Positions 127 to 27,355 of a DNA stretch of 27,355 nt are shown here, piece after piece. Origin of the DNA: a virus; IMG/VR virus record IMGVR_UViG_3300045988_120747, positions 1 to 27,355 of that record; one strand, 5' to 3'. A program made the translations under genes and the position numbers. Under the pieces are notes generated by a model. It ran no database searches and was not told the DNA's origin. It saw only the letters and a program-made list of their open reading frames with translations. The stretch's first letter is position 1. Each line of letters opens with the position of its first letter.

Positions 127-260
127 AAATCAATCTGGCTTGGTATCTCTTCTATGGCCGGATGCTGAATATGAGCAGACAGGAGATCATTAACACACGC
201 TACGGCAAACATGACAGTAACTGCCCCGACATCGATGCGCGCCCTGCTGGGCGGTACTGA
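96..260 (+). CDS. -1 frame extension (gpT-like part of the chaperone GT fusion), apparently cut short
   Basis: After a -1 slip, frame 3 reads K-RGQPTRNRVEINLAWYLFYGRMLNMSRQEIINTRYGKHDSNCPDIDARPAGRY*, with stop TGA at 258..260. It has no start codon or RBS of its own and lies directly after the major tail and chaperone genes. Confidence 0.55.
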   Translation, partial: KRGQPTRNRVEINLAWYLFYGRMLNMSRQEIINTRYGKHDSNCPDIDARPAGRY

Positions 261-1668
261 GGGCAGCGTACTCGACACGTACCGCGGCGAATTCTTCTTC
301 ACACACTTCCTCACGCAGCTGCTTACGTCACGCGGGCAGAACCGCGGCGTAGTCATACGCTACGGGAAAAACCTTATAGACCTCCGGCAGGAGGAGAACA
401 TTTCCAAGATGTACACCGGGGTATATCCGTATTACGTCGACAGCGAGACCGGAGAGATAACCCAGCTGCCCGACAAAATTGTAGCTGTCCCCGGCACATT
501 TGACTTCATCAACATCCTCATGCTGGACGTCTCGGGAGACTTCGACAGCCCGCCAACCGCGCAGCAGCTTATTCTCAGAGCGCAGAGCTATATCAACGAC
601 AACAATTTAGGAATACCGACCGTCTCCATCTCACTGAGCTATCAAGACATTGCCAGATTGATGGATTCAGCAGCGCCGCCCGAAATGATCAAGCTGTGCG
701 ATACCGTCACGGTCATTTATGAGAAGCTCGGCATTGAGACCACAGCCAAGGTCACGGAAACAGAGTACGATGTGCTGCGCGACAGGTACACTTCAATCAA
801 CATCGGTGACATCCGCGCGAACATTGCTGACACCATATACAGCAACGCGCAGGCGGTCGAGCAAACCGCTATTGACCTCCGCACCGAGACAGGCAAGGCA
901 ATAGCCAACGCGACGCAGCTCATCACGGGCACCAAGGGCGGCAACTTCGTCTTCCAGTTCAACTCCGACGGAAAGCCGATGGGCTTTTCCATCATGGACA
1001 CCGACGATGTGCTGACCGCAACCAATGTATGGCGCTTCAATCTCGGCGGCCTCGGGTACAGCTCCAAAGGCTATAACGGGCCGTTCGGGACAGCAATCAC
1101 GCAGGACGGTAAGATCGTTGCCGACTTTATACAGGCGGGCGCGCTATCCTCGGAGAATGTCACTGTGGGTGGGTTCACGCTCTCCGCGAGCTCACTCAGA
1201 AACGGCATGACGGCGCTCGACGACACAACGCATGACGGTGTGTATGTCGGGCTTGACGGCATAGCGCTCGGCAAAGGCGCATTCAAGGTTGACAAATACG
1301 GCAATCTCACTGCCACCAGCGGCAAGTTCACCGGCAGCGTCTACGCTTCCAGCATCCTGACCGAGGCCGAAGAAACCGGAGCGGGCTACATCGAGGGGAA
1401 TCAAGTTGGAGACTATACACTCTCCGGCGGCAGTGGCGGCAATCTTGCATATGACACAGTTGCCCCGGGAAACAACGACTCAACACTCAGCGGTTATGTC
1501 TCTCGCGGGACCACCGCATACGGGCAGTGCAACGGCGGGAATATCAGCAGCAATTATATCAGCGTTAATTCTCTGGCGGCTGGCGCACTCGGCATCGGCG
1601 GGCATGACTGCTATTTAGGGACACTATCGATTAACGGGATATCACACAATGTTGTTATGTGGGAATAA
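211..1668 (+). CDS. Tail-tip protein (Tal; Prophage_tail / phage minor structural protein family), N-terminally truncated
   Basis: Motifs ALLGGTEGSVLDTYRGEFFF, RGQNRGVVIRYGKNLIDLRQEENISKMYTGVYPYY, NVWRFNLGGLGYSSKGYNGPFGTAITQDGKIVADFIQAG are typical of Firmicute siphophage Tal proteins. From memory the first motif is internal in full-length members. There is no RBS before ATG 211. Confidence 0.8.
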   Translation: MTVTAPTSMRALLGGTEGSVLDTYRGEFFFTHFLTQLLTSRGQNRGVVIRYGKNLIDLRQEENISKMYTGVYPYYVDSETGEITQLPDKIVAVPGTFDFINILMLDVSGDFDSPPTAQQLILRAQSYINDNNLGIPTVSISLSYQDIARLMDSAAPPEMIKLCDTVTVIYEKLGIETTAKVTETEYDVLRDRYTSINIGDIRANIADTIYSNAQAVEQTAIDLRTETGKAIANATQLITGTKGGNFVFQFNSDGKPMGFSIMDTDDVLTATNVWRFNLGGLGYSSKGYNGPFGTAITQDGKIVADFIQAGALSSENVTVGGFTLSASSLRNGMTALDDTTHDGVYVGLDGIALGKGAFKVDKYGNLTATSGKFTGSVYASSILTEAEETGAGYIEGNQVGDYTLSGGSGGNLAYDTVAPGNNDSTLSGYVSRGTTAYGQCNGGNISSNYISVNSLAAGALGIGGHDCYLGTLSINGISHNVVMWE

Positions 1669-4310: not shown

Positions 4311-4321
4311 GGGGGCGCAGC

Positions 4322-6764: not shown

Positions 6765-6805
6765 AAAAAAGAACCGAGCGGGTTATTCCGCTCGGCTCTT
6801 TTTTT
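6765..6805. terminator. Bidirectional rho-independent terminator shared by the lysis operon and the integrase
   Basis: A6 - ccgagcgg - gttatt - ccgctcgg - T7. The integrase stop codon (6783..6785) lies in the loop. Confidence 0.75.
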
Positions 6806-8393
6806 GCCTCGGCAGACTAAAGCAAAGTAGCCCACCATTGATAATAATTCTTGGTACCGGTGGAGCGACACCCGGAATTATTATCAATCCTATTTCGGGG
6901 TCGTCCCAATCTGTATTAAAGTCAAATGTTCCGTCCGGTTTCGCATCCAGCAGCGTCCAGACCCTTATTCTGTCCTTGCCGACCTCTACCCGGACAACTA
7001 CGCTCAGAAGAGCGGGAATATCGTTCGCGGCGACCTTGAGCAGCTCACGGAGCCTGTCCTCGGGGATCGTCGTGCCCTGCGCCTGGTTATGCAGCGTTGT
7101 CATTTCACGGTCGTTCTGCGCCTGCTCGGCCTCCAGCGCGTGAACCGTGTCAATCAGGGACTGACTGTGCATACCGGCAAGCACCGCGCTCATGGCGGCG
7201 TCGAGCTGCTTCTTTATCTCGGCCTGCCGGTCAAATAGGGCTTTCATGCGCATAGCCGTCTGTTCCTGAATCTTCCCGCGCTCCTCGCGCAGTATACAGA
7301 TAAGCCCGTCGACATTCTCAGGGTTCCCGAGCATATTTTTGATAGCCTCGGCAATCATGCGTTCAAGATCGTCAACCTTGATAGGCATATTGTCACAGGT
7401 TTTCTTTCGCTTCTTCTCAGAGCAGGCATAGTAATAATACCCACCCTGCGAGCACGTCACGGACATTGAGGCCTTGCACTCCCCGCAGAACACTTTCCCC
7501 TTGAGCGGGTACTCCCTGACTCTCACAGGCCGTCCCGCCTGCTTGCGTTTGTTTGCCATAAGCTTCTCCTGTACTATATCCCAAGTTTCCCGGTCGACAA
7601 TGGCCGGTATCATGTCCTCCATGCGCATCACCGTAGACGCGACAGCATGACTGTTCCGGCTGCCGTCCGGGCGCTTCTGCGTCCGTCCATAGGTCAGCAC
7701 GCCGATATACTTCTCGTTCTTCAGTAGGTCGTGCAGACTGTTAGACCCGAACGTGCCGCCCGACTTCGTGCGCCGTCCCTCGGCGTTGAGCCGCTGGATG
7801 ATCTCCCGATAAGACCGCCCGGCGGCATAGTCCCCGAAGATGATGCGCACCGTCTCGGCCTCAGGCTCGCAGACCTCGATCCTGCCGTCGATGACGACAT
7901 ACCCGAGCGGGGGCACGCCGCCGGTATACTTCCCCTGCTCAGCCATCCAGCGCATTTTCTCACAGACCTTTTGCCGGGTCTGCAAAACCCACATCTGATT
8001 CATAAGTGCCATGCCACCCTCTGACATGAACGTCGCAGGGTCGCGCAGATCGCCGCCGATCATCGGCTGAGTCACTGATACCACCCGGACGCCAAGACGC
8101 TCCAGACGCTCACGCAGAGTGAACCACGCGGTCATTTTGCGAAACATACGGCTTTGATCATAGATAACGACCGTGTCCGCGCCGCCCTCCGAGAGCAGCC
8201 GCATCATACGGTCAAACTGCGGCCGGGTCTCTTTCATGCCGCTGACAGCTTCATCCGCGAACACATCCAGCACAGGGAGCCGCTGCCGGTCGCACCACTC
8301 GCGGCACCTGCTGACCTGAACCTCGATACTGTCGGCATCCTGCCGGTCGGTCGAGAACCGGGCAAGGATATATGCCCCGTGAGTTAACTTCAT
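6783..8393 (-). CDS. int: Large serine recombinase (integrase)
   Basis: N-terminal resolvase motif YILARFSTDRQ, a recombinase domain (GGVPPLGY, YREIIQRLN), a zinc ribbon (CGEC...YYYYACSEKKRKKTCDN) and a C-terminal coiled coil. Confidence 0.9.
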   Translation of the reverse strand: MKLTHGAYILARFSTDRQDADSIEVQVSRCREWCDRQRLPVLDVFADEAVSGMKETRPQFDRMMRLLSEGGADTVVIYDQSRMFRKMTAWFTLRERLERLGVRVVSVTQPMIGGDLRDPATFMSEGGMALMNQMWVLQTRQKVCEKMRWMAEQGKYTGGVPPLGYVVIDGRIEVCEPEAETVRIIFGDYAAGRSYREIIQRLNAEGRRTKSGGTFGSNSLHDLLKNEKYIGVLTYGRTQKRPDGSRNSHAVASTVMRMEDMIPAIVDRETWDIVQEKLMANKRKQAGRPVRVREYPLKGKVFCGECKASMSVTCSQGGYYYYACSEKKRKKTCDNMPIKVDDLERMIAEAIKNMLGNPENVDGLICILREERGKIQEQTAMRMKALFDRQAEIKKQLDAAMSAVLAGMHSQSLIDTVHALEAEQAQNDREMTTLHNQAQGTTIPEDRLRELLKVAANDIPALLSVVVRVEVGKDRIRVWTLLDAKPDGTFDFNTDWDDPEIGLIIIPGVAPPVPRIIINGGLLCFSLPRQKKSRAE

Positions 8394-8849: not shown

Positions 8850-8884
8850 TCAAAAAACTCCTTTCGATAAGGGAGAGCGGGGGC

Positions 8885-9082: not shown

Positions 9083-9104
9083 CTGTATCCCTCCTGACAA
9101 TGTT

Positions 9105-9133: not shown

Positions 9134-9154
9134 CAGAAACTTGCGGCGCGGAGA

Positions 9155-9733
9155 TTATTTCTTTTCCTGCCACATGGCAACATCGGAGCGGACAGCGATA
9201 CCGACCACAACAAGCGTGGCCAGGATGAGCGGCGCGAGCGCCACAACAAAGATGCTTGTGCCGGTGCTCTGGAACAATCCCGCGTCTTTTACGGATGCGT
9301 CGAAGATCATATAGGCGATGAGGGCGCACACCAGCAGTACACAGACGGCCACAAGCGCATAGACCATGGGGCGGTATGAAGAAAAGCGCTTATCCTTTTC
9401 GGCGTCCAATTCCTCCAGCCGCCGGATGTCCCCGGCCTGCCTGACATTCTCCAATTCGAGCTGGTGTATGCGCTTGGTCAGCTCGGAGACGTCCTGCGGC
9501 TCTCTGAGACCGCACAGCTCATCAAGCGACAGGCCGAACAGGTCGGCAATAGCTGCCTGCTCGAACAGCTTCGGGTTGCAGGCAGTTCCGGCGCTCTGCG
9601 TGGCTATGGCGGAGTAGCTCACGCCCGCCGCCTCGGACAGATCATTGAGGGACATGTGATGCTCACTACGGGCGTCGGTTATCTTGCTGTTGTACGCATC
9701 AAAAAAGGGCTGCAAACGCTGATAAGGTGTCAT
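9155..9733 (-). CDS. Membrane-tethered XRE-family HTH protein (HTH - coiled coil - 2 TM helices)
   Basis: HTH region: MSLNDLSEAAGVSYSAIATQSAG...IADLFGLSLDELCG. Coiled coil: IHQLELENVRQAGDIRRLEELDAEKDK. Hydrophobic helices: MVYALVAVCVLLVCALIAYMIF and IFVVALAPLILATLVVVGIAV. Confidence 0.7.
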   Translation of the reverse strand: MTPYQRLQPFFDAYNSKITDARSEHHMSLNDLSEAAGVSYSAIATQSAGTACNPKLFEQAAIADLFGLSLDELCGLREPQDVSELTKRIHQLELENVRQAGDIRRLEELDAEKDKRFSSYRPMVYALVAVCVLLVCALIAYMIFDASVKDAGLFQSTGTSIFVVALAPLILATLVVVGIAVRSDVAMWQEKK

Positions 9734-9895
9734 TTCTTATCTTATCCTCCCAGAAAATTTTCAGATTCCGAAAACCGGGAAACACGATTTAGCAGAAAAT
9801 GACCCGGCTTGTCAGAAACAGACGTGGACATTATCATGCTGCGTCTGCTACCATATAGGCGTAGCAGACAGTCAGGGGCAGACATTTGTTATAAA

Positions 9896-9927
9896 GCCCC
9901 GGCAAAGGCGGGCACCAATGCCGGGGC
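9896..9927 (-). terminator. Hairpin 7 nt after the stop of the 9934..10665 gene
   Basis: gccccggca - 14 nt - tgccggggc. On the minus strand it is followed by tttataa. Confidence 0.45.
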
Positions 9928-9933
9928 GGTCTA

Positions 9934-10665
9934 TTAAGTACGATAATCGAAAACAATGCTTCCGTCAAAAACAAAGTATATCGCGGTCTCATTCTCAAAC
10001 GTTATATAGAAATCACTGCGGATCATTGCCCCGAAAGAATTTTGCGCGTCGACGTAGGAACTCACCCAGAATTGGCCGTCTCTCTTATCAATACGCCAGC
10101 CCTGCTGCGGGTCATACCACTCGCCGGGAAACTCGGCGGTACTGGGAGCTTTGAGAACGGATTTAACAAGATCCTCCGAAGCGGTTATGTACTGAATGGC
10201 TTCTTCTGTGGTAGGGAGAAGATCAAACGGCATCTGCTTAATTTCTCCGTTGTCATAAAAGACCATTGTGCCGGAATAAATCTTTGAAACATCATCACCG
10301 GAGAAAACAACACTGAAAGTATATCCCTCCTGTGAAAAATACGGCGCACCATCTTCCCCGATAGAAAGCTTGCCCGCGCTGAGACCTAAGTCCGTACATA
10401 GTGACAGCATATTTTCGGCTTGCGCAAGAGTGAGATCGTTCTCTTCGGCGTATATTTCTTCAGAACTCTTTACGGCTTCCGGAGTAGGCGCAGCATCGGA
10501 ACCGGCGGCAGTAGTATTATCGGTCAATGCACCCTTGATGAAGAGGACAAGGCAAATAAGCAGACCGAGGAGTATTTTCTTTTTAGGCTTTTTGTTGAAC
10601 AAGCGAATGATAAGCCATATCAGCAAAACAAAGAAAACGACGAATGAAAATATTGACAACCACAT
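9934..10665 (-). CDS. Membrane-anchored protein of unknown function (moron); 2 N-terminal TM helices plus an extracytoplasmic domain
   Basis: Visibly more AT-rich than its surroundings. GGAGG lies 9 nt before ATG 10665 (the ORF-track start at 10701 has no RBS). N-terminus: MWLSIFSFVVFFVLLIWLIIRLF-KKPKKK-ILLGLLICLVLF. The C-terminal motif is APSTAEFP...VDAQNSFGAMIRSDF. Confidence 0.7.
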   Translation of the reverse strand: MWLSIFSFVVFFVLLIWLIIRLFNKKPKKKILLGLLICLVLFIKGALTDNTTAAGSDAAPTPEAVKSSEEIYAEENDLTLAQAENMLSLCTDLGLSAGKLSIGEDGAPYFSQEGYTFSVVFSGDDVSKIYSGTMVFYDNGEIKQMPFDLLPTTEEAIQYITASEDLVKSVLKAPSTAEFPGEWYDPQQGWRIDKRDGQFWVSSYVDAQNSFGAMIRSDFYITFENETAIYFVFDGSIVFDYRT

Positions 10666-10712
10666 TCCATAAAACCTCCACGTCAAAGAGTTGCCCTGCA
10701 AATATGAACATT

Positions 10713-10741
10713 ATATTAACACCATTTCAAGATTTTATCAA
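10713..10741 (-). promoter_or_regulatory. Candidate promoter of the moron gene (TTGATA-17-TAATAT with TGn extension)
   Basis: The minus strand reads ttgataaaatcttgaaatggtgttaatat. It lies about 40 nt upstream of the RBS. Confidence 0.4.
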
Positions 10742-10793
10742 GGAACTATATACTCGGTAGCATATAGAAAAACGCGAAAGGAGTTTGAGCACT

Positions 10794-10904
10794 TTGACCA
10801 AAAACGACGAAGAGCGGGAGATTCTGAAAGCAGAGATCATTAAGCTGCTGCGAAACGCGAGCATATCCGACCTGCGCGCGGTCTATATCTGGCTGACTAC
10901 ATAG
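10794..10904 (+). CDS. Micro-ORF (36 aa, TTG start), hypothetical
   Basis: gaaaggag RBS lies 10 nt upstream. Product: LTKNDEEREILKAEIIKLLRNASISDLRAVYIWLTT*. It ends just before the bidirectional terminator. Confidence 0.3.
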   Translation: MTKNDEEREILKAEIIKLLRNASISDLRAVYIWLTT

Positions 10905-10917
10905 CAAGGCACCCAGC

Positions 10918-10960
10918 AAAAAAAGGAACCCGAATCATCACGATTCGGGTTCCTTTTTTT
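10918..10960. terminator. Bidirectional rho-independent terminator
   Basis: A7 - ggaacccgaatc - atcac - gattcgggttcc - T7, a perfect 12-bp stem. The repressor stop codon (10938..10940) lies in the loop. Confidence 0.85.
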
Positions 10961-11330
10961 CTGCCTCGGCAAGCACGTCGGTATAGATTTTTTCAAGCAC
11001 CTGCCATTCGGGGCCGTCAGGCTCATACCGAAGCAGGACGCGCACGGCGCGCCGCGCGAGGCTGTCAGGCCTGCCGTTCATAAGGCGCTTGAGGTTACGG
11101 GCAAGCTCCTCGGATTCCTCTTCCGGGCGGAACATCTCACCGGCTCCGGTGCGCAGCCATATCTCATTAACGCCGAACTCGCGGCAGATGGCACGAATGG
11201 TCTGCTCACTGGGGTTATTCTTCCCCACTTCGATTGCGCTGACTGAGGAAGCTGTTATACCAATGCGCTCGCCGAACTTTTCGAGCGTTAACCCTACGCT
11301 CTTACGCACGGTCTTAATACGGGTGTTCAT
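10938..11330 (-). CDS. CI-like repressor, XRE-family HTH
   Basis: MNTRIKTVRKSVGLTLEKFGERIGITASSVSAIEVGKNNPSEQTIRAICREFGVNEIWLRTG is a classic HTH_3. aaaggtgg RBS lies 8 nt before ATG 11330. The gene is divergent from the early operon. Confidence 0.85.
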   Translation of the reverse strand: MNTRIKTVRKSVGLTLEKFGERIGITASSVSAIEVGKNNPSEQTIRAICREFGVNEIWLRTGAGEMFRPEEESEELARNLKRLMNGRPDSLARRAVRVLLRYEPDGPEWQVLEKIYTDVLAEAEKKEPES

Positions 11331-11354
11331 TGGGTACACCACCTTTCAAGCAGG

Positions 11355-13699: not shown

Positions 13700-14010
13700 A
13701 GATGAGCACCAAGAAGAAAGAGACGTTTCGGCAGTATATAAGCCTGTGCCCCGACCACTACCGGAGATTCGACACCAAGCATTACCAACTGACCCACGAA
13801 GCAGACAACAGCAGCTGCGCATTTTGCGGACGCGCGGCAGCACAGTACAGTTTCATACCCCGGTACGTAATCCGGCAGCAGCGGCAGCGCAGCGCTCCAG
13901 CGCGCAGCCGCGACACGCGGGCACAGTACCGGGGAGACTGGAGGGAGTCAATATATGGAAACAACAATGACAGCAGCGAGCGCCCGGAAGAAGATGCCCT
14001 GCCCTACTGA
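13696..14010 (+). CDS. Hypothetical Cys-containing protein; the 3' part overlaps VRR-NUC and the true end is uncertain
   Basis: ATGA overlap. The product begins MKMSTKKKETFRQYISLCPDHYRRFDTKHYQLTHEADNSSCAFCGR. The last ~55 nt overlap the next gene, and the C-terminal third is Arg/Ser-rich and low complexity. Confidence 0.4.
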   Translation: MKMSTKKKETFRQYISLCPDHYRRFDTKHYQLTHEADNSSCAFCGRAAAQYSFIPRYVIRQQRQRSAPARSRDTRAQYRGDWRESIYGNNNDSSERPEEDALPY

Positions 14011-14371
14011 GGGAGTAGAACAGGCTACGCTATTCTCCTGGGCGTCAATGCGCACTTACTGGTACCCGGAACTGGCCTTGATGTTCCACATCCCGAACGG
14101 CGGGAAGCGGAGCAAGGCCGAGGCCGGGCGCTTCCGCGCCGAGGGAGTGAAGTCCGGCGTGCCGGACATCTGCCTGCCGGTAGCCCGCTGCGGCTATCAC
14201 GGGCTGTTCATAGAGCTGAAGCGCCAGCACGGGAACAGAGCCACGAAGAACCAGAACACATGGCTTGCCGACCTGCGCGAGCAGGGCTACGCCGCTGCCG
14301 TGGCCTACGGCTGGGAGAAGGCGGCACAGATCATCACAGACTATATGGAGGAAGAGTATGAAAATAAATAA
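13955..14371 (+). CDS. VRR-NUC domain nuclease (PD-(D/E)xK fold)
   Basis: EGVEQATLFSWA....HIPNGGKRSKAEAGRFRAEGVKSGVPDICLPVARCGYHGLFIELKRQHGNRATKNQNTWLADLREQGY. The D...ExK core and spacing are typical of VRR-NUC. GGAGGG RBS. Confidence 0.85.
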   Translation: METTMTAASARKKMPCPTEGVEQATLFSWASMRTYWYPELALMFHIPNGGKRSKAEAGRFRAEGVKSGVPDICLPVARCGYHGLFIELKRQHGNRATKNQNTWLADLREQGYAAAVAYGWEKAAQIITDYMEEEYENK

Positions 14372-14957
14372 GATTGCCGGTATCTGCAAGCGCGCCGGGA
14401 TGATCAGACTCTACGATGAGCACACCGGAGATATACAGTGGTGCGGCACGGATGCTGCTATATACCCGCTGTACTCTCTGCCGGTGCTTGACGGCAACAA
14501 TGTCGGCCCGGTGATGAACTTCTCCGACAAGGAGTTGAAGAACATCGTGGTCGAGCACGTGCGCATTCCTCTGCGCTACGACGTCAACGACACCGCCGAG
14601 GGCGAGAAGTATATCGGAGAGCCCATATTCCGGTTCGTTATAGGCAGCAATGTCTACAACGCCTACCAGCGTCCGGGAACGCTCGGTGTGCTGTTCATCA
14701 ATGCAGCGTACCTCAAGCCGCTGCTCGGCGGAGAGGATGACCCTGAACTATACCTCCGCAGCGAGAACAGTTTCACGGGCGAGTACATAGCCGTGAAGCA
14801 GGGGCTTATGCTTGCAGCAATCATAGAACCAGAGCTGGATATTCTGAGCGCGAGCCTTGTTAAGAACATCTTGGCATTTGCAAATGCGGTGCACAGCGAG
14901 ATCGACCGCATGGACGGCATCCCCGACACAGACCCGGAGACGGGCGAGATCGTATAA
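14358..14957 (+). CDS. Hypothetical protein (199 aa)
   Basis: ggaggaagagt precedes ATG 14358. The product begins MKINKIAGICKRAGMIRLYDEHTGDIQWCGTDAAIYPLYSLPVL... No domain recognised. Confidence 0.65.
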   Translation: MKINKIAGICKRAGMIRLYDEHTGDIQWCGTDAAIYPLYSLPVLDGNNVGPVMNFSDKELKNIVVEHVRIPLRYDVNDTAEGEKYIGEPIFRFVIGSNVYNAYQRPGTLGVLFINAAYLKPLLGGEDDPELYLRSENSFTGEYIAVKQGLMLAAIIEPELDILSASLVKNILAFANAVHSEIDRMDGIPDTDPETGEIV

Positions 14958-14963
14958 CGCGAG

Positions 14964-15842
14964 ATGGACAAAGAACAAACTGCAATGGAGCGGCTGCGGC
15001 TGGCGTCGGATATGTCGCTGCGCCTGTATCACCGTCCGCTGCTGCTGACCGACTCCGGCGGCAAGGACAGCGCCGTGATCTGCAAGCTCGCGGAGAATGC
15101 CGGAATCCCGTTTGAAATCGTCCACTCTCACACGACCGCCGACGCACCTGAGACCGTCTATCATGTCCGCATGCGTGCCAAAGAATACGAACTCAAAGGC
15201 GTTAGCTATACGATCCATTACCCCACGTATAAGGGCGAGCCTACAAGTATGTGGAAGCTCATACCCATTAAGCTCATGCCGCCGACACGGTTAGCCCGTT
15301 ACTGCTGCGCTGTGCTCAAGGAGACAACAGGCCGCGACAGGTTCATAGCGACCGGTGTGCGCTGGGCGGAGAGCACAGCACGGAAGAACAATCGCAGCAG
15401 TCTTGAAATAATCCACGCAGACCGGGAGAAGACCCTGCTGCTGAACAACGACAACGATGAAGATAGGCGGCTCTTCGAGACATGCGCGCTCAAGGGCAAG
15501 CGTGTCTGCAATCCTATCATCGACTGGCAGGAATCCGACGTGTGGGACTACCTCACAGATCAGCACGTCGAATGTAATCCACTGTACTGTGAGGGCTTGC
15601 GTCGAGTGGGCTGCGTTGGCTGCCCGATGGCGGGCAAAGCACGGAAAAAAGAGTTTGCCCGCTGGCCGAAGTTCCCGCAGATGTACATCAATGCGTTTGA
15701 CCGCATGCTCGCAGAGCGACAGCGCCGCGGCACGCTGGCCGGCTCATGGGGGATGGGCACTACCGGCGTTGACGTGTTCCACTGGTGGATGGAGGACGGC
15801 GTCCTGCCGGGGCAGTTCGAGATTGAGGAGGATGAACCGTGA
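14964..15842 (+). CDS. PAPS-reductase-family (adenine nucleotide alpha-hydrolase) protein, DndC/IbrA-like
   Basis: PP-loop motif LLLTDSGGKDSAV. A C-terminal Cys cluster: CNPIIDW...CNPLYCEGLRRVGCVGCPMA. Confidence 0.8.
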   Translation: MDKEQTAMERLRLASDMSLRLYHRPLLLTDSGGKDSAVICKLAENAGIPFEIVHSHTTADAPETVYHVRMRAKEYELKGVSYTIHYPTYKGEPTSMWKLIPIKLMPPTRLARYCCAVLKETTGRDRFIATGVRWAESTARKNNRSSLEIIHADREKTLLLNNDNDEDRRLFETCALKGKRVCNPIIDWQESDVWDYLTDQHVECNPLYCEGLRRVGCVGCPMAGKARKKEFARWPKFPQMYINAFDRMLAERQRRGTLAGSWGMGTTGVDVFHWWMEDGVLPGQFEIEEDEP

Positions 15843-16390
15843 CTGATATCAAGCCATTCCCGGATAAACTATTCCGCACAATCTACATAGATCCGCCGTG
15901 GCCAGAACGGGGCGGCGGCAAAATCAAGCGCGGCGCAGACCGGCACTACAACCTGATGTCTGTTGCTGAAATTAAGGCGCTGCCGATTGCCCGGCTCGCA
16001 GACCCTGACGGGTGTCACCTGTACTGCTGGGCAACAAACAATTATCTACCAGCCGCCATTGAGTGCGTGAAAACGTGGGGCTTTGAGTATGTAACAGTGG
16101 TAACGTGGATGAAAGACCGTCAAGGGCTTGGACAGTATTACCGCGGCTCCACAGAGCATTGCATATTTGCCACGACGAAGAAGCGCCTGCCATACAAAGT
16201 TTCTCCTGAAGGCAAACGCTGTCAGGGGAAAACGGGATTCTACGCACCAAAAACAATTCACAGTCGAAAACCAGATGAGATGCGCCGGATGATAGAGCTT
16301 GTGAGTTACGCACCGCGCATAGAGATTTTTGCGAGAGAACAATTCACCGGCTGGGATGCCTGGGGAAACGAAGTGGAGGAACTGACATGA
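15839..16390 (+). CDS. MT-A70-family N6-adenine DNA methyltransferase (GTG start)
   Basis: Catalytic motif IYIDPPWPE, plus LYCWATNNYL, TWMKD and HSRKPDEM. gaggagg RBS 7 nt upstream. GTGA overlap with the upstream stop. Confidence 0.9.
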   Translation: MTDIKPFPDKLFRTIYIDPPWPERGGGKIKRGADRHYNLMSVAEIKALPIARLADPDGCHLYCWATNNYLPAAIECVKTWGFEYVTVVTWMKDRQGLGQYYRGSTEHCIFATTKKRLPYKVSPEGKRCQGKTGFYAPKTIHSRKPDEMRRMIELVSYAPRIEIFAREQFTGWDAWGNEVEELT

Positions 16391-21559: not shown

Positions 21560-21919
21560 ATGACACGAAAAAAATGGCGGGAAGCCATATTGAACGATAT
21601 GCGGCAGCTCGACATAGATTCAACCGGGTTTGACATCACGATAAACCTTGCCGCCGATACGCTCTATGAGCTCGATCGGGCACGCACCGCATACAAGAAA
21701 AGCGGCTCTATCGCCGTGATAGAGCACACGAACAAAAACGGGAGCACCAACAAAGCAAAGAACCCGGAATTGACAATCGTCCTTGACCTCAAATCCAAAG
21801 CCCGTGAATTTCTGGCCGAGCTTGGCCTGACCCCCGCCGCACAAAAGCGGTTGACAAACGATGCCCCCAAAAAGGAGAAGCTCAGTCCGCTGGCCAAAGC
21901 GCTGAGCGAGATAAAATGA
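21560..21919 (+). CDS. terS: Terminase small subunit, P27 family
   Basis: About 120 aa. The pattern W......L.....G.D....L..Y......A......G.....TNKNGSTNKAKNPELTIVLDL..KAREFLAELGLTPAAQ is typical of P27-type TerS. It lies directly upstream of terL. Confidence 0.8.
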   Translation: MTRKKWREAILNDMRQLDIDSTGFDITINLAADTLYELDRARTAYKKSGSIAVIEHTNKNGSTNKAKNPELTIVLDLKSKAREFLAELGLTPAAQKRLTNDAPKKEKLSPLAKALSEIK

Positions 21920-23268
21920 GAGCAATCACCGGGCGGAATTGGGATGTGGTCCTTGAGTATGCCGAGAGCATACGCAGCGGCCGGAAATGCGCCTGCCCCG
22001 AGCTCAAGCAAGCGGTTGAGCGTTTCTTCCGAGACCTCGACGACCCAAGATATTACCTTGACCCTAAAGGCCCTGAGTTCTGCATTCAGATCATCGAAAA
22101 GACGATAGTCCACAAGCAGGGCGAGAAGCTTGACGGCACACCGCTTAGAGGAACACCGTTCCTACTGGAACCGTTCCACAAATTCATCATCTACAACGTC
22201 GTCGGGTTCAAACTGACAGGGACGGATGTGGCAAGGTATCACGAAGCCCTGATCTTTATCCCGCGAAAAAACATCAAGACCACCTTTGCGGCAAGCCTGG
22301 CATTCGCTCTATCACTATATTACCGCAAGAGCGGGAGCAAGTGTTACATCGTCGGTGCGGCGCTGAAACAGAGCTTGGAAAGCTTTGAATTTCTGGAATA
22401 CAACATCAAGCACATGGGCGAGGACGCCGCGAGCGGCGGGGCGGTAAAAATTATCAACAACAACAATGAGCATTCCTTAAGGGCGGAGCTGCCCGGCGGG
22501 GACGGCTCATTTTTCATTCAATCCCTCGCGGCAAACCCTGACGCGCAAGACTCACTGAACTGCAACCTTGCAATCTGCGATGAGCTGCACGCCTATAAAA
22601 AGCCGAAGCAGTACAACCTCTTCAAGGAAGCCATGAAGGCCTATTCGAACAAGCTTCTGATCGGCATCAGCACGGCAGGGGATAACGAGCAGATGTTCCT
22701 TGGACAAAGGCTGAAATACTGCCGCAAGGTACTTGAGGGGATAATCAGCGATGAGCAGCTGTTCATCTTCATGTGCTGTGCTCCAAAAGACCCGGAGACG
22801 GGCGAGGTGGATTTCACAAACCCGACAGTCCATGAGATGGCAAATCCGGCCTATGGCATCAGCATACGCCCTGAGGAGATTCTCAACGACAGCATTCAGG
22901 CGCAGAACGACTCACAGCAGCGCAAAGATTTCTTTGCAAAAAGCCTGAACGTCTACACAAATTCCATCAAGGCGTATTTCAACATTGATGAGTTCCGCCG
23001 GTCCGATAAAAAGTATGACTGGACGCTCGACCAGCTACGGCGGCTGCCGATCAAATGGTACGGCGGCGCTGACCTCTCAAAGCTGCATGACCTCACTGCC
23101 GCCGCCCTTGTCGGCAACTACAAGGGCGTGGATATCATCATCACGCACGCCTTTTTCCCGGTGGCTGTCGCCCACAGAAAGGCGGACGAAGATAACATTC
23201 CTCTGTTCGGATGGCAGGATGACGGATGGCAATTAAAGCAATTATGCTGCGCAAGCGCATCGAACTGA
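21916..23268 (+). CDS. terL: Terminase large subunit (Terminase_1 type), C-terminally truncated
   Basis: Walker-like region IFIPRKNIKTTFAA, LAICDELHAY, ISTAGDN, and the start of the nuclease domain (WYGGADLSKLHDLTAAALV). The ORF ends after ...PLFGWQDDGW plus 12 unrelated residues. At 450 aa it is short for a family I recall as well over 500 aa. Confidence 0.85.
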   Translation: MRAITGRNWDVVLEYAESIRSGRKCACPELKQAVERFFRDLDDPRYYLDPKGPEFCIQIIEKTIVHKQGEKLDGTPLRGTPFLLEPFHKFIIYNVVGFKLTGTDVARYHEALIFIPRKNIKTTFAASLAFALSLYYRKSGSKCYIVGAALKQSLESFEFLEYNIKHMGEDAASGGAVKIINNNNEHSLRAELPGGDGSFFIQSLAANPDAQDSLNCNLAICDELHAYKKPKQYNLFKEAMKAYSNKLLIGISTAGDNEQMFLGQRLKYCRKVLEGIISDEQLFIFMCCAPKDPETGEVDFTNPTVHEMANPAYGISIRPEEILNDSIQAQNDSQQRKDFFAKSLNVYTNSIKAYFNIDEFRRSDKKYDWTLDQLRRLPIKWYGGADLSKLHDLTAAALVGNYKGVDIIITHAFFPVAVAHRKADEDNIPLFGWQDDGWQLKQLCCASASN

Positions 23269-24908
23269 AAAAGGCCGAGCTTGCCCAGCACAGGGAAAGA
23301 GCAAAAGAGTTTGAAACTCGCAAATCCGACATCACCGAGGCAATCGGTGAGGCCACCACTGAGGAGGAGATCGACGCTCTCAATGAGGGCATGGATCAGC
23401 TTGAAACCGAGTGGAAAGAGCACGAGGAGACCGAAAATCGCCTCAGCGGCGAAATCGCGGCGCTTGAGCAGCAGCTCACCGAAGAGGAGCAGCGCGGCAC
23501 GCCGCCCATCAACAACCCCGAGAGCGGGGCAAATACCGAAAGGAGCAATCATATGACCACCACCATCAACATCCGTTCTCTGCCCTTTGGCCAGAGAGTA
23601 ATGGACGCGCTGCCTCGCCAGGAGCGCGACGCAATCATCGGGCAGGAGGATAGTAAAAACTTCCTCGCACAGCTGCGCAGCCTCAAGGGCGAGAAGCGCG
23701 GCGTCAGCGGCGGTGAGCTGACCATTCCTGTCGTATTCCTCGACCTCATCGCCGAGAATATGTACAGATACAGCAAGCTGCTCAACCGCGTCCGTGTGCG
23801 CTCTGTTACGGGCACCACCCGTCAGACCATCGCGGGCACGGTCCCGGAAGCTGTCTGGACGGAGATGTGCGCAGCTATCAATGAGCTGACTCTGGTATTC
23901 AACCAGACCACGCTTGATGGCTACAAGGTAGCGGGCTTCGTACCTGTCTGCAACAGCCTGCTGGAGGACAACGACGTCAACCTCGCAAGCTGGATCGTTG
24001 AGATGCTTTCCGAAAGCATCGGCCTCGCAATCGACAAGGCGATCCTCTACGGCAAGGGCGCAGCCAACAGTATGCCTCTCGGCATTGTAACCCGCCTTGC
24101 ACAGCAGAGCAAGCCCGCCGGGTACCCGGCTGCCGCCCCTGCATGGGTCGACCTCCACACCAGCAACATCCTCAAGATCGATGCCAGCAAGACCGGCGCT
24201 GAGTTCTGGGCAGCCCTCCAGATCGCGGCAGGCGCCACGTTCACCCGTTACAGCCGCGGTAATCAGTTCTGGGCGATGAACAGCAAGACCTACGCGCTTC
24301 TCAAGTCCAAGGCAATCACTTTCACCGCATCCGGTGATGTTGTAGCCAATGTTTACGGCATCCTGCCCATCGTGACCGGCGATATCGACATTCTGGAGTT
24401 CATCCCGGACGGCGATATCATCGGCGGTTACGGCGACCTGTACCTCTACGCCGACCGCGCGAGAATGACGATTGAGGAGAGCCGCGAGGTGCAGTTCCTT
24501 CAGGACAACACCGTATTCAAGGGCAAGGCCCGTGCGGACGGTACGCCGGTCGTTCCGGGCGCGTTCGTTGCGATTAATATCAACGGCAGCGAAGTTACCA
24601 CCGCAATGACGTTTGCAGCTGACACGGCGAACGACGCCGACCTTGATTCCCTCAGCGTCGGCACCGGCTCACTCAGCCCGGCCTTTGATGCGGCCACTCA
24701 GAGCTACACGCTCTCTACCACGGCGGCATCCCTCGCAGTCAACGCAGCGGCGGCACAGATCGACGCAAAGGTAGCGATTAGCTACGGCGGAAAGAATGTA
24801 GCCAACGGCGGCAACATTACCCCGACTGCCGGGGCGAGCACCCTCACCGTGACCGTGACCAATGGCAACGCGACCAAGGTGTACACCGTCGCGATCACCA
24901 AGACCTGA
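23226..24908 (+). CDS. HK97-fold major capsid protein with an N-terminal coiled-coil (delta/scaffold-like) region and a C-terminal cadherin-like/Ig-like domain
   Basis: The core motifs LTIPVVFLD, DGYKVAGFVPVCNSLLEDNDVNLASWIVEMLSESIGLAIDKAILYGKG, LGIV and FLQDNTVFKGKARADG are typical of the Phage_capsid family. There is no RBS before either ATG (23226 or 23244). Confidence 0.85.
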   Translation: MAIKAIMLRKRIELKKAELAQHRERAKEFETRKSDITEAIGEATTEEEIDALNEGMDQLETEWKEHEETENRLSGEIAALEQQLTEEEQRGTPPINNPESGANTERSNHMTTTINIRSLPFGQRVMDALPRQERDAIIGQEDSKNFLAQLRSLKGEKRGVSGGELTIPVVFLDLIAENMYRYSKLLNRVRVRSVTGTTRQTIAGTVPEAVWTEMCAAINELTLVFNQTTLDGYKVAGFVPVCNSLLEDNDVNLASWIVEMLSESIGLAIDKAILYGKGAANSMPLGIVTRLAQQSKPAGYPAAAPAWVDLHTSNILKIDASKTGAEFWAALQIAAGATFTRYSRGNQFWAMNSKTYALLKSKAITFTASGDVVANVYGILPIVTGDIDILEFIPDGDIIGGYGDLYLYADRARMTIEESREVQFLQDNTVFKGKARADGTPVVPGAFVAININGSEVTTAMTFAADTANDADLDSLSVGTGSLSPAFDAATQSYTLSTTAASLAVNAAAAQIDAKVAISYGGKNVANGGNITPTAGASTLTVTVTNGNATKVYTVAITKT

Positions 24909-24925: not shown

Positions 24926-25210
24926 ATGACGAACGACGAACTGCTCACGATGCTGAAGTATAACCTCAACAAGACCGCAGCGGCGCAGGAGCCGTATCTT
25001 CAGCAGCTCCTTGAAGTTGCGGCGCATGAAATCCGCAGGGAGGGCATAAAAACCCTCTCTGCGGACAACCTTGATGACTGCAACCTGATCGTGATGTATG
25101 CGGCGTATCTGTTTCGCAAGCGCGCCGAGGACAACCCGGTCATGCCGCGAATGCTCCGATATGCCCTTAATAACCGCCTGTTTGCGGAGAAGCTTGGAGG
25201 CACGACATGA
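24926..25210 (+). CDS. Head-tail connector (gp6-like adaptor)
   Basis: gaaaggag RBS. LLTMLKYNLNKT......YLQQLLEVAAHEIRREGI....NLIVMYAAYLFRKR is typical of gp6-like connectors. It lies right after the capsid gene. Confidence 0.7.
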   Translation: MTNDELLTMLKYNLNKTAAAQEPYLQQLLEVAAHEIRREGIKTLSADNLDDCNLIVMYAAYLFRKRAEDNPVMPRMLRYALNNRLFAEKLGGTT

Positions 25211-25557
25211 CGCTTGACAGTGGCATCCTGACCGTGTGCAAGCTCAAGAACACAGCGGCAGCCGGGCAAATGCCGGTCATGCAGCTTGCACAGCAGTCGA
25301 CGCATTACTACGGTGAGCGGACCGTGGGCTATAACAGGCAGTACGCGGCCATGGGCGTGAATCAGCAGATAGATATGCTGGTACGCATATGGCAGGACAG
25401 AGCCGTCAAGATCGGTATGTGCGCCGTCCTCGAGGATGATTCACAGTACCGGATAGACAACGTGCAGCATCTGCTTGATAGTGACGGCTTGGAGGTCACA
25501 GACCTGACCTTAAGCGCGTTGGAGGAGTTCTATGATGTCTTACCGGGAACGCCTTGA
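25207..25557 (+). CDS. Head closure / head-tail adaptor (Phage_H_T_join-like)
   Basis: ATGA overlap. The pattern YYGERTVGYNRQYAAMGVNQQIDMLVRIW....YRIDNVQH, together with size and position, fits this family. Confidence 0.55.
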   Translation: MTLDSGILTVCKLKNTAAAGQMPVMQLAQQSTHYYGERTVGYNRQYAAMGVNQQIDMLVRIWQDRAVKIGMCAVLEDDSQYRIDNVQHLLDSDGLEVTDLTLSALEEFYDVLPGTP

Positions 25558-25861
25558 AAGTATCGGCACTGCACTTGCAACGGCGGTGCCGAACACATAT
25601 CACTACTTCCGCCCGAACCTCCAGCCCCCATTTTGCATATGGGCGGAAGAAAACGGGAGCAGCTTTGCCGCAGACAACAAGACGGTTGAGCACGCGCTCA
25701 CGGGCACTGTGGACTATTTCAGCAAGCAGGAATATGACCCGGCACCGGATGCCATAGAAAGCACCCTGAGCGGGTTAGGACTCATCTGGGAGCTGAACAG
25801 CGTACAGTACGAAGATGAAACCGAGCTTATTCACCATGAATGGACATGGAGTATGCGCTAA
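25532..25861 (+). CDS. Neck / tail-completion protein, family unassigned
   Basis: ggaggag RBS. About 109 aa, lying between the adaptor and the gp10-like gene. Confidence 0.5.
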   Translation: MMSYRERLESIGTALATAVPNTYHYFRPNLQPPFCIWAEENGSSFAADNKTVEHALTGTVDYFSKQEYDPAPDAIESTLSGLGLIWELNSVQYEDETELIHHEWTWSMR

Positions 25862-26367
25862 TGGCAACGATGAAGTTTACCGGCCTCGGCGAATACCTCA
25901 CGAAGCTCGGCGCGCTTGAGGGCGATGAGGAAATAATAAAGCGCGCCGTCTATAAAGGCGCGGCTGTGGTCGCAGATGCCATAAAAGCGGAGCTGGAGGG
26001 TTTGCCGACCATCACCAATGAAGAGGCCATGCACCGGTACAACTCACGAAACCCGTCGGCTTCATCTATGCAGTACATAAGCGAGCCGCAGAAAAAGGGC
26101 TTGATTGACGGTTTCGGTCTCGCCCCAATCGAGAACACCGAGGATTATATCAGCACCAAGGCCGGATTTGACGGCTACAACGGAGTAAAAACAAAGCGCT
26201 GGCCGCACGGTCAGCCCAATGCGATGATAGCCCGTGCTGTCGTGAGCGGGACGTCATTCATGCAGAAAAATGATTTTGTCGGGCGTGCGACGCGCAAGGC
26301 CAAAAAGGCAGCTGAGGCGGCCATGGCGAAATCACTTGACGACGACATAAAAAACAAAATGAAATGA
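25861..26367 (+). CDS. HK97 gp10-family neck/tail-completion protein
   Basis: TAATG overlap start at 25861. Size and the pattern ...AVYKGAAVVADAIKAEL....NAMIARAVVSGTSFMQKNDFV fit the family, as does its position before the major tail gene. Confidence 0.6.
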   Translation: MATMKFTGLGEYLTKLGALEGDEEIIKRAVYKGAAVVADAIKAELEGLPTITNEEAMHRYNSRNPSASSMQYISEPQKKGLIDGFGLAPIENTEDYISTKAGFDGYNGVKTKRWPHGQPNAMIARAVVSGTSFMQKNDFVGRATRKAKKAAEAAMAKSLDDDIKNKMK

Positions 26368-26377: not shown

Positions 26378-27001
26378 ATGTCAGCAGCAGGAAAAGTCTG
26401 TACCGGCTTCTCACGCCCGTGGGTAGCCAAGTACAGCGCAAACGGCGGCACCGTCACATACTCAGGCGCTATGCAGCTTGCCCGCGGCGTAGAGGTCAAG
26501 ATCGACCCGGAAACCGCGGCAGACAATACGTTTTATGCCGACAACATGGCGGCTGAGAGCCAGGAGGGTGTTCTCACCGGCGGCACTACCACCCTGACGG
26601 TCGACGGCCTGTTCCGCAAGGCAGAGGATCTGATAATGGGTCTGCCTGAGACCAAGAGCAAGATCACAATCGACGGCAGCACGCAGGTCAGCGTTACGGA
26701 CTACGACGACGATATGAAGATTCCGTATATCGGGCTTGGCTTCGTCGTGCGGTATATGTCCGACGGTGTCACATCGTACAGCCCGGTAGTACTCACTAAG
26801 CTCCGCACTACCGCATCCTCGGAAGAATACGCCACGCAGGAAGAGGAAATCGACTGGCAGACAAAGGAGCTTGAAATGTCCATACACCGCGACGACAGCA
26901 CTAAGCACCGCTGGAAGCGCGTGGCGGACGATCAGGAGAGCGAAGACGCCGCCGAGGCCTGCATCAAGGCCATGCTCAACTATACAGAGCCGGGCGGCTG
27001 A
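26378..27001 (+). CDS. Major tail (tube) protein, phi13/TP901-1-like
   Basis: 207 aa, lying immediately upstream of the frameshifting chaperone gene. The patterns FYADNMAAES, LTVDGL and ATQEEEIDWQTKELEMSIHRDD resemble this family. Confidence 0.7.
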   Translation: MSAAGKVCTGFSRPWVAKYSANGGTVTYSGAMQLARGVEVKIDPETAADNTFYADNMAAESQEGVLTGGTTTLTVDGLFRKAEDLIMGLPETKSKITIDGSTQVSVTDYDDDMKIPYIGLGFVVRYMSDGVTSYSPVVLTKLRTTASSEEYATQEEEIDWQTKELEMSIHRDDSTKHRWKRVADDQESEDAAEACIKAMLNYTEPGG

Positions 27002-27013: not shown

Positions 27014-27355
27014 ATGATCATATTCGGCAAAGAACGCGGTTTTAGTTTCACCGTCGGTGCGTCCGTGGAGATTGCGGAGATGTGCCCTGACGGCGACCTG
27101 ACCAAGATTGAGAAGTTTCTCAGCGGCAAGTACGGCAGAGTGACGCGCAACGGCGCAAAGCTCATCATTGAGCTCAACAAGGCCTATGAGATGCAGCGCA
27201 GCTTTGAAAATGAGACCTACAAGCCCGAGCCCCTGACCATGGCACAGGTCATGGCACTGAGCGCCGAGCAGTTCACGGCGCTGATGTCTGAGGCAATGGC
27301 AGCCTTTGAGGCCGGGCGCAAGACCACGGTCGAGGTCGAGCCTTCAAAAAAAAAC
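27014..27355 (+). CDS. Tail assembly chaperone (gpG-like), 5' part; runs off the window end and continues at base 100 (stop at 124..126 after circularisation)
   Basis: taggagg RBS. The product MIIFGKERGFSFTVGASVEIAEMCPDGDLTKIEKFLSG...EVEPSKKN is open to the last base of the window. It is absent from the ORF track because it has no stop codon in the window. Confidence 0.8.
   Translation, partial: MIIFGKERGFSFTVGASVEIAEMCPDGDLTKIEKFLSGKYGRVTRNGAKLIIELNKAYEMQRSFENETYKPEPLTMAQVMALSAEQFTALMSEAMAAFEAGRKTTVEVEPSKKN
27257..27355. repeat. Terminal direct repeat copy 2 (identical to 1..99)
   Basis: Exact 99/99 identity, read directly. Confidence 0.95.

Follow-up and report, generated by a model that had tools for sequence, protein, structure and literature searches.

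A circular genome of a gut temperate siphovirus with deletions in its head and tail modules, probably a packaging-defective mutant

Introduction

Defective or cryptic prophages and laboratory deletion mutants of temperate phages, among them derivatives of lambda such as lambda-dv, have had essential morphogenesis genes removed through illegitimate recombination between very short homologous stretches. They keep the immunity, replication and lysis functions, as does the viral genome described here, a stretch of 27,355 nucleotides from IMG/VR (IMGVR_UViG_3300045988_120747), the whole of which is called the window below. Related head genes are found in Bacillus phage BV1 ('Bacillus phage 1') and in the Streptococcus suis Javan prophages, whose capsid proteins are 42-47% identical to that of the window from residue 1; the genes for the large terminase subunit (TerL) of BV1 and of Geobacillus phage GBSV1 are about 67% identical to that of the window at the DNA level. 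In BV1 and five Javan prophages, the records in which the annotation beneath the match reveals it, a head maturation protease is encoded directly upstream of the capsid gene. Unlike the HK97-type modules of Firmicutes siphoviruses, that of the window has had its protease and portal genes deleted.

We consider the window to be, with a probability of roughly 85%, the complete circular genome of a recent, sample-specific, packaging-defective deletion mutant of a gut temperate siphovirus. Its parent is a widespread HK97-like temperate siphovirus of the human and pig gut, and the mutant is an ordinary one rather than the bearer of a new kind of head module.

Truncation of the large terminase gene

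The small terminase subunit gene, terS (21560..21919, plus strand; Pfam Terminase_4, E=4.7e-12), is intact and occupies the identical gene position in all intact relatives. It is followed by a TerL open reading frame of 450 aa (21916-23268, plus strand), whose product ends in FGWQDDGW-QLKQLCCASASN before the stop codon. Residues 1-438 (21916..23229, plus strand), which span the whole ATPase domain and the N-terminal half of the RNase H-like nuclease domain, are 100% identical in amino acid sequence to the corresponding part of the 583-aa TerL in the relative L004. The match to the intact protein runs to W438, and similarity at the DNA level to the TerL genes of isolated phages also ends at 23230. 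What comes next, according to the translations and the frame offset calculated from the coordinates, is the 12-residue tail QLKQLCCASASN and a stop (23230..23268, plus strand). Because the capsid frame starting at 23226 and the TerL frame differ by an offset of 2, the tail represents capsid DNA translated in the wrong frame, which confirms the proposal of an earlier note on this DNA.

The Pfam profile TerL_ATPase (PF03354) is matched over positions 1-177 of 178 (E=3.9e-18), showing that the N-terminal packaging ATPase domain is complete. The profile TerL_nuclease (PF20441) is covered over positions 6-155 of 286 (150 of the 286), while an intact relative covers positions 6-281; a complete RNase H-like nuclease domain with its three catalytic acidic residues is absent from the TerL of the window. 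In the HK97 TerL nuclease the catalytic residues are D302, D388, and D471 (PMC9410871). When these residues were mapped via alignment to the HK97 TerL structure 6Z6D, D386 of the window TerL was found to be the retained equivalent of D302, while the equivalent of D388 (D472 of the intact TerL) is deleted together with everything downstream, so that two of the three catalytic aspartates are gone. The claim that TerL has lost its C-terminus, and with it the distal part of the nuclease domain, is thereby upheld: the family consists of proteins of 581-583 aa, and an end-to-end alignment with family members of about 450 aa was not seen. As judged from its sequence, the TerL gene of the window is a truncated remnant.

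The 2,225-bp deletion in the head module

Alignment to the relatives L004 and L008 places the first deletion junction at 23226..23229 (plus strand), where 2,225 bp are missing at the 4-bp microhomology ATGG, common to the TerL codons G437/W438 and to the capsid start (ATG G). Breakpoints at 23229|23226 were obtained by blastn in 20 relatives with 96-99.9% nucleotide identity to the window, namely 10 of 10 close IMG/VR relatives and 10 ENA/Logan contigs; in the relative L186 the two flanks of the junction are 99.83% and 99.93% identical to the window. Near-identical genomes with collinear flanks thus carry extra sequence exactly at the junction, the relation expected between a deletion mutant and its kin. 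In the earlier note about 2-2.5 kb of additional DNA was expected in relatives between 23220 and 23245, and in every relative examined the segment measures 2,225 bp. It encodes the C-terminal 145 aa of TerL, a 403-aa portal protein (PF04860), and an S78 prohead protease (PF04586). Reading this extra DNA as an insertion in the relatives (an intron, an intein, or a homing element) was rejected because it encodes the essential portal and protease as well as the rest of the nuclease domain.

The intact order of TerL (581-583 aa), portal (403 aa), S78 protease, and major capsid protein (MCP) is kept in more than 150 related loci and was confirmed from open reading frames and Pfam matches. The distance from the TerL start to the MCP start is about 3.5-4.0 kb (median 3,501 bp) in all of the approximately 150 related loci with both genes, a count that leaves out loci cut off inside TerL; a distance of 1,310 bp occurs only in the window's own contigs.

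The window itself holds neither of the two missing genes, as had been claimed. With the relatives' own proteins as tblastn queries, neither the portal nor the protease gave a significant match in the window (E at least 0.5 for both), and Pfam and PHROGs scans of most other sizeable open reading frames, including every one longer than 220 aa, returned neither protein, nor were homologues found among the unassigned ones. The prohead protease (S78/U35) and portal that lie directly upstream in all relatives are therefore absent from this head module. The C-terminus of TerL also had no significant tblastn match in the window; its best one (73 aa, 30% identity; E=0.002 for the fragment and 0.03 for the full protein) falls inside the terS gene and was taken as chance.

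Two copies of a 9-bp repeat, CGGATGGCA, are present at 23208-23216 and 23223-23231 (plus strand), as noticed earlier with doubts about their relevance. Two matches in the window against 0.53 expected, a number reached in 10 of 100 shuffles, are not significant by themselves. Native TerL codons (F-G-W and D-G-W) account for seven of the nine bases, and capsid codon 2 supplies the last two of the second copy. The repeat was rejected as the recombination substrate, since the junction alignment shows that the 4-bp ATGG was used; it is a by-product of the junction and not its cause.

The capsid gene and its start

The MCP gene (23226..24908, plus strand) has an intact coding sequence of 560 aa, and 430 blocks of the assembly collection contain the identical protein. 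It belongs to PHROG 10 (major head protein), has the HK97 fold with the Phage_capsid domain (PF05065) at residues 163-451 (E=5.8e-35), and carries a C-terminal Cadherin-like/Ig-like domain. The long N-terminal arm that had been described does precede the Phage_capsid domain; it is charged and delta- or scaffold-like, and it is kept from residue 1 in the relatives and in the isolated phages.

A capsid start at either 23226 or 23244, without a ribosome binding site (RBS), had been suggested. In the intact relatives AAAGGAG stands 8 nt upstream of the ATG equivalent to 23226, which identifies this codon, and not that at 23244, as the native start. On its right side the deletion ends at the capsid start codon, hence the native AAAGGAG has been lost from the window; a weak AGGA at 23216-23219 (6-nt spacer) has been left there by chance, and so the suggested lack of an RBS is nearly, though not strictly, true.

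The 3,379-bp deletion in the tail module

The second deletion junction (202..206, plus strand) lies at the 5-bp microhomology ACGGC, and 3,379 bp are missing there, with breakpoints at 213|202 in 10 of 10 close IMG/VR relatives and in 10 ENA/Logan contigs. Missing with it are the tail chaperone's frameshift extension, the 720-aa tape measure protein, the 235-aa Dit (Sipho_tail), and residues 1-138 of Tal. What is left of the latter is an N-terminally truncated Tal-like tail protein of 485 out of 626 aa (211..1668, plus strand; Pfam Prophage_tail), corresponding in tblastn to Tal residues 139-626 with 99.6% identity; its open reading frame starts at an internal Met, has no RBS, and is out of frame with the upstream remnant. 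Both junctions look random, are out of frame, and have destroyed RBSs. The idea that both deletions end at start codons, which would suggest a non-random or engineered process, was dropped, as it is true of junction 1 only: the ATG at 211 is an internal Met codon of the 626-aa Tal gene. In the earlier note no link had been drawn between the head junction and either the tail-module deletion or the circular phage-form topology.

Genome topology and host

The last 99 bp of the window (27257..27355) are an exact terminal direct repeat of positions 1-99, an assembler overlap, and the contig is therefore circular, with 27,256 bp of unique sequence, i.e., some 83% of a parental genome of about 32.9 kb (approximately 32,860 bp). 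A large serine recombinase, the integrase (6783..8393, minus strand; Pfam Resolvase, Recombinase, and Zn_ribbon_recom), converges on the holin gene (6155-6652), so that the genome has the phage (attP) configuration; the relatives and a Logan contig of run ERR1110315 show this contiguity as well. No host DNA or flanks (attL/attR) that would mark a cryptic integrated prophage are present in the circular window. For a dead-end prophage remnant, a packaging-dead genome in the attP form that lacks a host junction is slightly unusual.

Genes for an integrase, repressor-type regulators, a replication initiator, a HicAB-like pair, and lysis have been kept. Wherever the remaining genes were compared with those of the intact relatives, they proved undamaged and nearly identical. 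That an otherwise undecayed genome should carry two separate large deletions is mildly coincidental; in a phage inactivated by the first deletion the second would be neutral. Genes for an HNH protein, TerS, and TerL are present in this HK97-like phage, a set typical of cos packaging. A Firmicutes host is suggested by the lysis genes and by the nearest isolated phages. A search of GTDB genomes with the integrase gave a sole match, a 3.4-kb contig in a 'Bacteroidaceae' MAG bin, and this host assignment was rejected because the contig is too short to be trusted.

Occurrence of the deletion alleles

Both junctions recur in Logan contigs of run ERR1110315, where L002 and L185, the latter spanning junction 2, pass them unbroken, unbranched, and with 100% identity. 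The window, these two contigs, and an ENA scaffold of sample SAMEA3646699 agree at 100% across the junctions, a support at the assembly level, as the ENA and Logan assemblies likely derive from the same reads; the ENA contig is 27,311 bp long, and thus its terminal overlap differs from the 99 bp of the window. The truncated 450-aa TerL and the 485-aa Tal were each found in three contigs, the two listed in either case being the ENA scaffold of SAMEA3646699 and a Logan contig of ERR1110315.

The 22-nt string across junction 1 had no genuine match in IMG/VR, the JGI metagenomes, or the GTDB representative genomes, and the 30-nt string across junction 2 had none in IMG/VR. The lone JGI match to the former, in a 395-kb contig (L163) with nothing else in common with the window, lies inside an unrelated open reading frame reading LLDDGWQLKRS and shows no further similarity, so it was discarded as a chance 22-mer. 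The deletion alleles were found in one sample only, and no comparable deletion was seen in about 150 related loci or in the 10 listed contigs with the same capsid protein.

Origin of the genome and alternative explanations

Two illegitimate, microhomology-mediated deletions have struck the late operon of the parental phage. The first, at ATGG, joined TerL codon 438 to the capsid start codon, with loss of the portal, the S78 protease, and the capsid RBS; the second, at ACGGC, cost the phage its tape measure, Dit, and the N-terminal part of Tal. Short repeats most likely gave rise to both through replication slippage or end-joining. The resulting element would no longer be able to cut cos, build a portal vertex, mature its capsid, or build a tail, and for these reasons would not be an autonomous phage. 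Since the integrase, regulators, replication initiator, and lysis genes are kept and the assembly has the attP form, this defective variant of recent origin most likely remains able to excise and replicate, or is maintained outside the chromosome.

It is very improbable that the true genome is intact and that the junctions are chimeric joins made by an assembler, a scaffolder, or PCR template switching. The variant is indeed unique to one sample, and the ENA record is called a 'scaffold', but there is no N in the window, and both junctions are found in at least two differently built assemblies, as seen from the differing terminal overlaps and from Logan being another pipeline. Moreover, no assembly k-mer is nearly as short as a microhomology of 4-5 bp, which means that junction-spanning k-mers would have to exist in the reads, and random chimeric reads would not beat a well-covered intact path twice and still close the circle. 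A natural compact head module, working without a portal and protease of its own or with a short or split TerL by means of unrecognised genes, would be suggested only by the absence of the portal and protease genes from the window. Its likelihood is practically nil, and the comparison with the intact relatives refutes it: near-identical genomes hold the missing genes exactly at the junction. In addition, the last 12 residues of the TerL frame are encoded by capsid DNA in the wrong frame, the nuclease has lost two of its three catalytic Asp residues, and no candidate replacement open reading frame was found in the window.

The deletion mutant could also be a helper-dependent miniphage, i.e., a defective-interfering genome or incipient satellite in the attP form, packaged by the cos machinery of an intact relative. 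The genes for TerS, HNH, capsid, connector, and lysis, and presumably cos, are kept, there is no other lesion in the remaining genes compared, and a packaged miniphage would explain why a circular assembly and attP contiguity are found in the same run instead of an integrated remnant. Cos phages such as lambda package roughly 75-105% of their genome length, and the 27,256 bp of the window make up 83% of the approximately 32,860 bp of the parent. This reading is nevertheless unlikely, given a single sample and no comparable deletion in about 150 related loci, and the random-looking, out-of-frame, RBS-destroying junctions bear nothing adapted for helper hijacking. The unbranched Logan contigs would also argue against a near-identical intact helper at appreciable coverage in the run. 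If true, it would offer a snapshot of a satellite beginning from its own helper, and read data showing an intact helper alongside would turn the window into a modestly interesting in vivo example of a defective-interfering phage genome.

With the window read as a deletion mutant, a 'complete circular' genome that passes as high-quality by virtue of its terminal repeat is a non-viable variant, and its head module should not be mistaken for a natural architecture in annotation pipelines or in studies of gene content. It is a clean, base-resolved example of deletion mediated by 4-5 bp of microhomology in a gut phage, with near-parental sequences at hand for comparison, and it indicates that a defective genome can be abundant enough, in the phage form, to be assembled into a circle.

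Comparison with known systems

Like PICI, cf-PICI, and P4-like satellites, the window is sub-genomic and non-autonomous, has its own integrase, and encodes some packaging and capsid proteins. Unlike them, it bears scar-like out-of-frame junctions and no recognisable hijacking genes, was found once, and, instead of forming a distinct lineage, is collinear with a complete phage, from which its sequence hardly differs; the distinct, recurrent lineage with a helper-exploiting gene repertoire that defines satellites is not seen here. From cryptic prophages it differs in being a circular attP molecule and not a chromosomal remnant with host flanks, and from lambda-dv in having kept most of its genome.

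The closest resemblance is to the intact members of its own uncultured gut phage lineage, such as ENA ERZ857959 NODE_454_length_52728, IMGVR_UViG_3300029885_000029, and IMGVR_UViG_3300045988_104297 (33.5 kb), with 96-99.9% nucleotide identity over the shared sequence. They have the identical capsid protein, identical TerL residues 1-438, and the same gene order, and some also share the serine integrase and the attP-form layout; unlike the window, however, they contain the 2,225-bp segment of the head module and the segment of about 3.3-3.4 kb encoding the tape measure protein, Dit, and the N-terminus of Tal.

Head-Module Deletion

The window represents, with a probability of about 0.85, a variant of a common gut temperate phage that two microhomology-mediated deletions have left defective in packaging, head, and tail. 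The first lies between the genes for the large terminase subunit (TerL) and the capsid protein. The ORF at 21916–23268 encodes 450 aa, its translation ending in ...DIIITHAFFPVAVAHRKADEDNIPLFGWQDDGW-QLKQLCCASASN before the stop codon. The TerL_ATPase domain is complete (Pfam profile 1–177 of 178), and the TerL_nuclease domain covers only profile positions 6–155 of 286; PHROGs likewise identifies a terminase large subunit, with matches stopping at residue 438. The TerL and capsid frames differ by an offset of 2, so the final 12 residues of the truncated TerL result from out-of-frame reading of the capsid gene, which bears out the earlier note.

No ORF resembling a portal or prohead protease is present in the window, and tblastn with the relatives' portal, protease, TerL C-terminus, tape measure, and Dit proteins gave no convincing match (E of at least 0.5 for portal, protease, tape measure, and Dit), in agreement with the absence noted earlier. 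The TerL C-terminus query matched 73 aa within the TerS gene (30% identity, E = 0.002), which was taken as chance.

The intact form of the module is widespread. The identical 560-aa capsid protein occurs in 430 blocks of a public assembly collection, human and pig gut samples included, and in all ten places shown the gene order is HNH, TerS, TerL (583 aa), portal (403 aa; 387 aa as called in one contig), Peptidase_S78 (198 aa), capsid. In ten out of ten IMG/VR contigs 96–99.9% identical to the window the alignment breaks at 23229 and restarts at 23226 with additional DNA in between, and an identical break is found in ten ENA/Logan contigs; the flanks of one 52.7-kb contig, ERZ857959 NODE_454, are 99.83% (left) and 99.93% (right) identical to the window. 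The predicted relatives, with about 2–2.5 kb separating 23220 from 23245, thus exist: 2,225 bp is absent from the window, comprising the TerL C-terminus, portal, and protease. In L004, an intact relative, this DNA encodes the final 145 aa of TerL, which extend the nuclease match to profile positions 6–281 of 286 and confirm that the window lacks the distal part of that domain, followed by a portal (PF04860, E = 1.8e-55) and a Caudovirus prohead serine protease (PF04586, E = 2.7e-45). Both genes are also found in about 150 more distant loci. Setting aside those truncated within TerL, the two gene starts are about 3.5–4.0 kb apart (median 3,501 bp); a spacing of 1,310 bp is confined to the window's own contigs. 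DNA similarity to TerL of isolated phages (Geobacillus GBSV1, Bacillus phage 1, Ruminococcus gnavus phages) also stops at 23230.

At the breakpoint the intact TerL gene reads ...GAT GAC GGA TGG / TTG ACC ATG... (D D G W L T M) and the intact capsid start reads ...AAAGGAGTCAATT / ATG GCA ATT AAA, while the window carries ...GATGACGG ATGG CAATTAAA; ATGG (23226–23229) is the sole overlap between the two parental sequences. The 9-bp repeat CGGATGGCA does occur at 23208–23216 and 23223–23231, as reported in the earlier note, which left its relevance open, but it was rejected as a recombination substrate: CGGATGG is native to TerL twice, in F-G-W and D-G-W codons, and the CA after the second copy comes from capsid codon 2, placed there by the deletion. 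Nor is the repeat significant in itself (2 matches in the window versus 0.53 expected; 10 of 100 shuffles reach 2).

The ORF at 23226–24908 encodes a 560-aa HK97-fold major capsid protein (Pfam, PHROGs), with the Phage_capsid domain at residues 163–451. The right-hand edge of the deletion is exactly at the capsid start codon, and of the two starts considered previously, 23226 and 23244, the former is therefore native. The native ribosome-binding site, AAAGGAG, 8 nt upstream of the start in intact relatives, is deleted, in line with the missing RBS of the earlier note; all that precedes the gene is a fortuitous AGGA at 23216–23219. The C-terminal extension (24650–24908, residues about 475–560), conserved in relatives, has a weak Cadherin-like/Ig-like match (Pfam E = 0.0035, below the gathering score), a beta-sandwich of the decoration type fused to the major capsid protein.

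The catalytic centre of the HK97 TerL nuclease consists of D302, D388, and D471, with an auxiliary beta-hairpin followed by K463 (PMC9410871). Intact TerL was aligned to this protein (PDB 6Z6D, chain numbering offset by 10 from native). With the offset applied, D386 of the window TerL (in WYGGADLS) corresponds to D302 and is kept; the D388 equivalent, D472 of intact TerL (in GHDR), and those of the hairpin, K463, and D471 all lie past the residue-438 breakpoint. The remnant therefore keeps just one catalytic residue of the three and roughly half the fold, and its nuclease activity is presumably absent. Even apart from this loss, it has no docking partner, the portal being absent.

Tail-Module Deletion

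A second scar is located at 202–206, where 3,379 bp is absent relative to all close relatives and ACGGC is the microhomology common to both sides. The intact order is a 122-aa chaperone-like ORF with a short extension, a tape measure of 720 (or 694) aa, a 235-aa Dit (Sipho_tail), and a 626-aa Tal (Prophage_tail). What is lost is the extension of the chaperone-like ORF, the tape measure (720 aa), Dit, and Tal up to residue 138; ...CGCTACGGC in the extension is now joined to ACGGCAAACATG... inside Tal. The resulting 485-aa ORF (211–1668, Prophage_tail) corresponds to Tal residues 139–626 (tblastn), begins at an internal Met, has no RBS, and differs in frame from the upstream remnant. Just before the stop of the 122-aa ORF (start 27014) lies a run of nine A, TCAAAAAAAAAC (87–99 and 27343–27355), which looks like the programmed-frameshift slippery site of G/GT-type tail assembly chaperones; in intact relatives a 45–48-aa ORF, cut by the deletion, stands between the chaperone-like ORF and the tape measure.

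Genome Organization and Topology

Bases 1–99 are identical to 27257–27355, an exact terminal direct repeat, and the window is therefore a circularly closed assembly of 27,256 bp unique sequence. Adding 2,225 and 3,379 bp gives a parent of about 32,860 bp, consistent with the relatives' contigs of 31.5–33.5 kb. Distal tail genes (Prophage_tail/Tal, BppU-like, others; 211–4621) are followed by endolysin and holin (5363–6652), a large serine recombinase (6783–8393, minus strand), a HicB-like protein with repressor-type regulators (8445–11342, minus strand), early genes including VRR-NUC, PAPS-reductase-like, MT-A70 methylase, replication initiator, and HNH (12–21 kb), TerS (21560–21919), the truncated TerL, the capsid gene, head-tail connector genes (24926–26367), the major tail protein (26378–27001), and the chaperone-like ORF running from 27014 across the circular closure. 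The HicB-like antitoxin (8445–8849, minus strand; weak Pfam match below the gathering score) adjoins a 65-aa HicA_toxin-family ORF (2357–2554 of contig L197) immediately upstream of the integrase, and the pair could serve as an element stabiliser. The VRR-NUC nuclease, PAPS-reductase-like, and MT-A70-type DNA methyltransferase genes at 13955–16390 may form a DNA-modification or anti-restriction cassette.

The convergent holin and serine-integrase genes (within 6652–8393) are separated by about 130 bp, probably attP. They are also contiguous in Logan contig L200 of the same run (ERR1110315), in IMG/VR relatives L165 and L166, and in every contig shown with the exact integrase, all below 50 kb and free of host flanks. 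This is the phage (attP) arrangement, so the defective genome is seen as an excised, replicating, or packaged circle or concatemer and not as a chromosomal remnant. Contigs of 52–214 kb carrying the same capsid gene suggest that integrated relatives exist.

Origin of the Variant

The truncated TerL and the 485-aa Tal are each found in three contigs, two of which are an ENA scaffold of SAMEA3646699 and a Logan contig of ERR1110315. The length of the ENA scaffold, 27,311 bp, implies a terminal overlap unlike the window's; Logan contigs L002 (2,086 bp) and L185 (3,765 bp) span junctions 1 and 2, respectively, uninterrupted and at 100% identity. That both junctions are an assembly or library artefact is thus very improbable: the assemblies are concordant, the window contains no N, and microhomologies of 4–5 bp are too short to make joins in a k-mer assembler, so that reads presumably span both junctions. 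The unbranched Logan contigs further argue that no near-identical intact allele is abundant in that run. Neither IMG/VR nor the GTDB species representatives contain the 22-nt junction-1 string, and IMG/VR lacks the junction-2 string as well. The sole match to the 22-mer in the JGI metagenomes, a database at whose size it is not specific, lies inside an unrelated ORF (LLDDGWQLKRS; positions 243–264 of the 395-kb contig JGI10211J34971_10000001) and is chance. No further lesions were found in the flanking genes compared. In all likelihood this is a real and recent variant, private to a single sample.

A genuinely portal-less head module has practically no probability left, being refuted by comparison with the intact relatives; the apparent TerL-capsid fusion point is a scar and no architecture. 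Somewhat less improbable than an artefact, yet still unlikely, is a helper-dependent hitchhiker, either defective-interfering or an incipient satellite: a size of 83% of the parent and the phage-form topology would permit it, but the variant is unique, its junctions are scar-like, and there is no evidence for a helper. The favoured reading is that two illegitimate deletions hit a common gut temperate phage, leaving a derivative that keeps integration, regulation, replication, and lysis functions, most likely still excises and replicates or persists extrachromosomally, and by itself is unable to make virions. A terminal-repeat "complete" viral genome can, it should be stressed, be a non-viable deletion variant, and the window would score as complete despite its missing essential genes.

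Deletion derivatives of temperate phages arising by recombination at very short homologies have long been known, and the present one is of that kind. In the parent, TerS, TerL, portal, and S78 protease genes together with a capsid bearing a delta-like arm make up a standard HK97-type head cassette, which Bacillus phage BV1 and Streptococcus suis Javan prophages also have.
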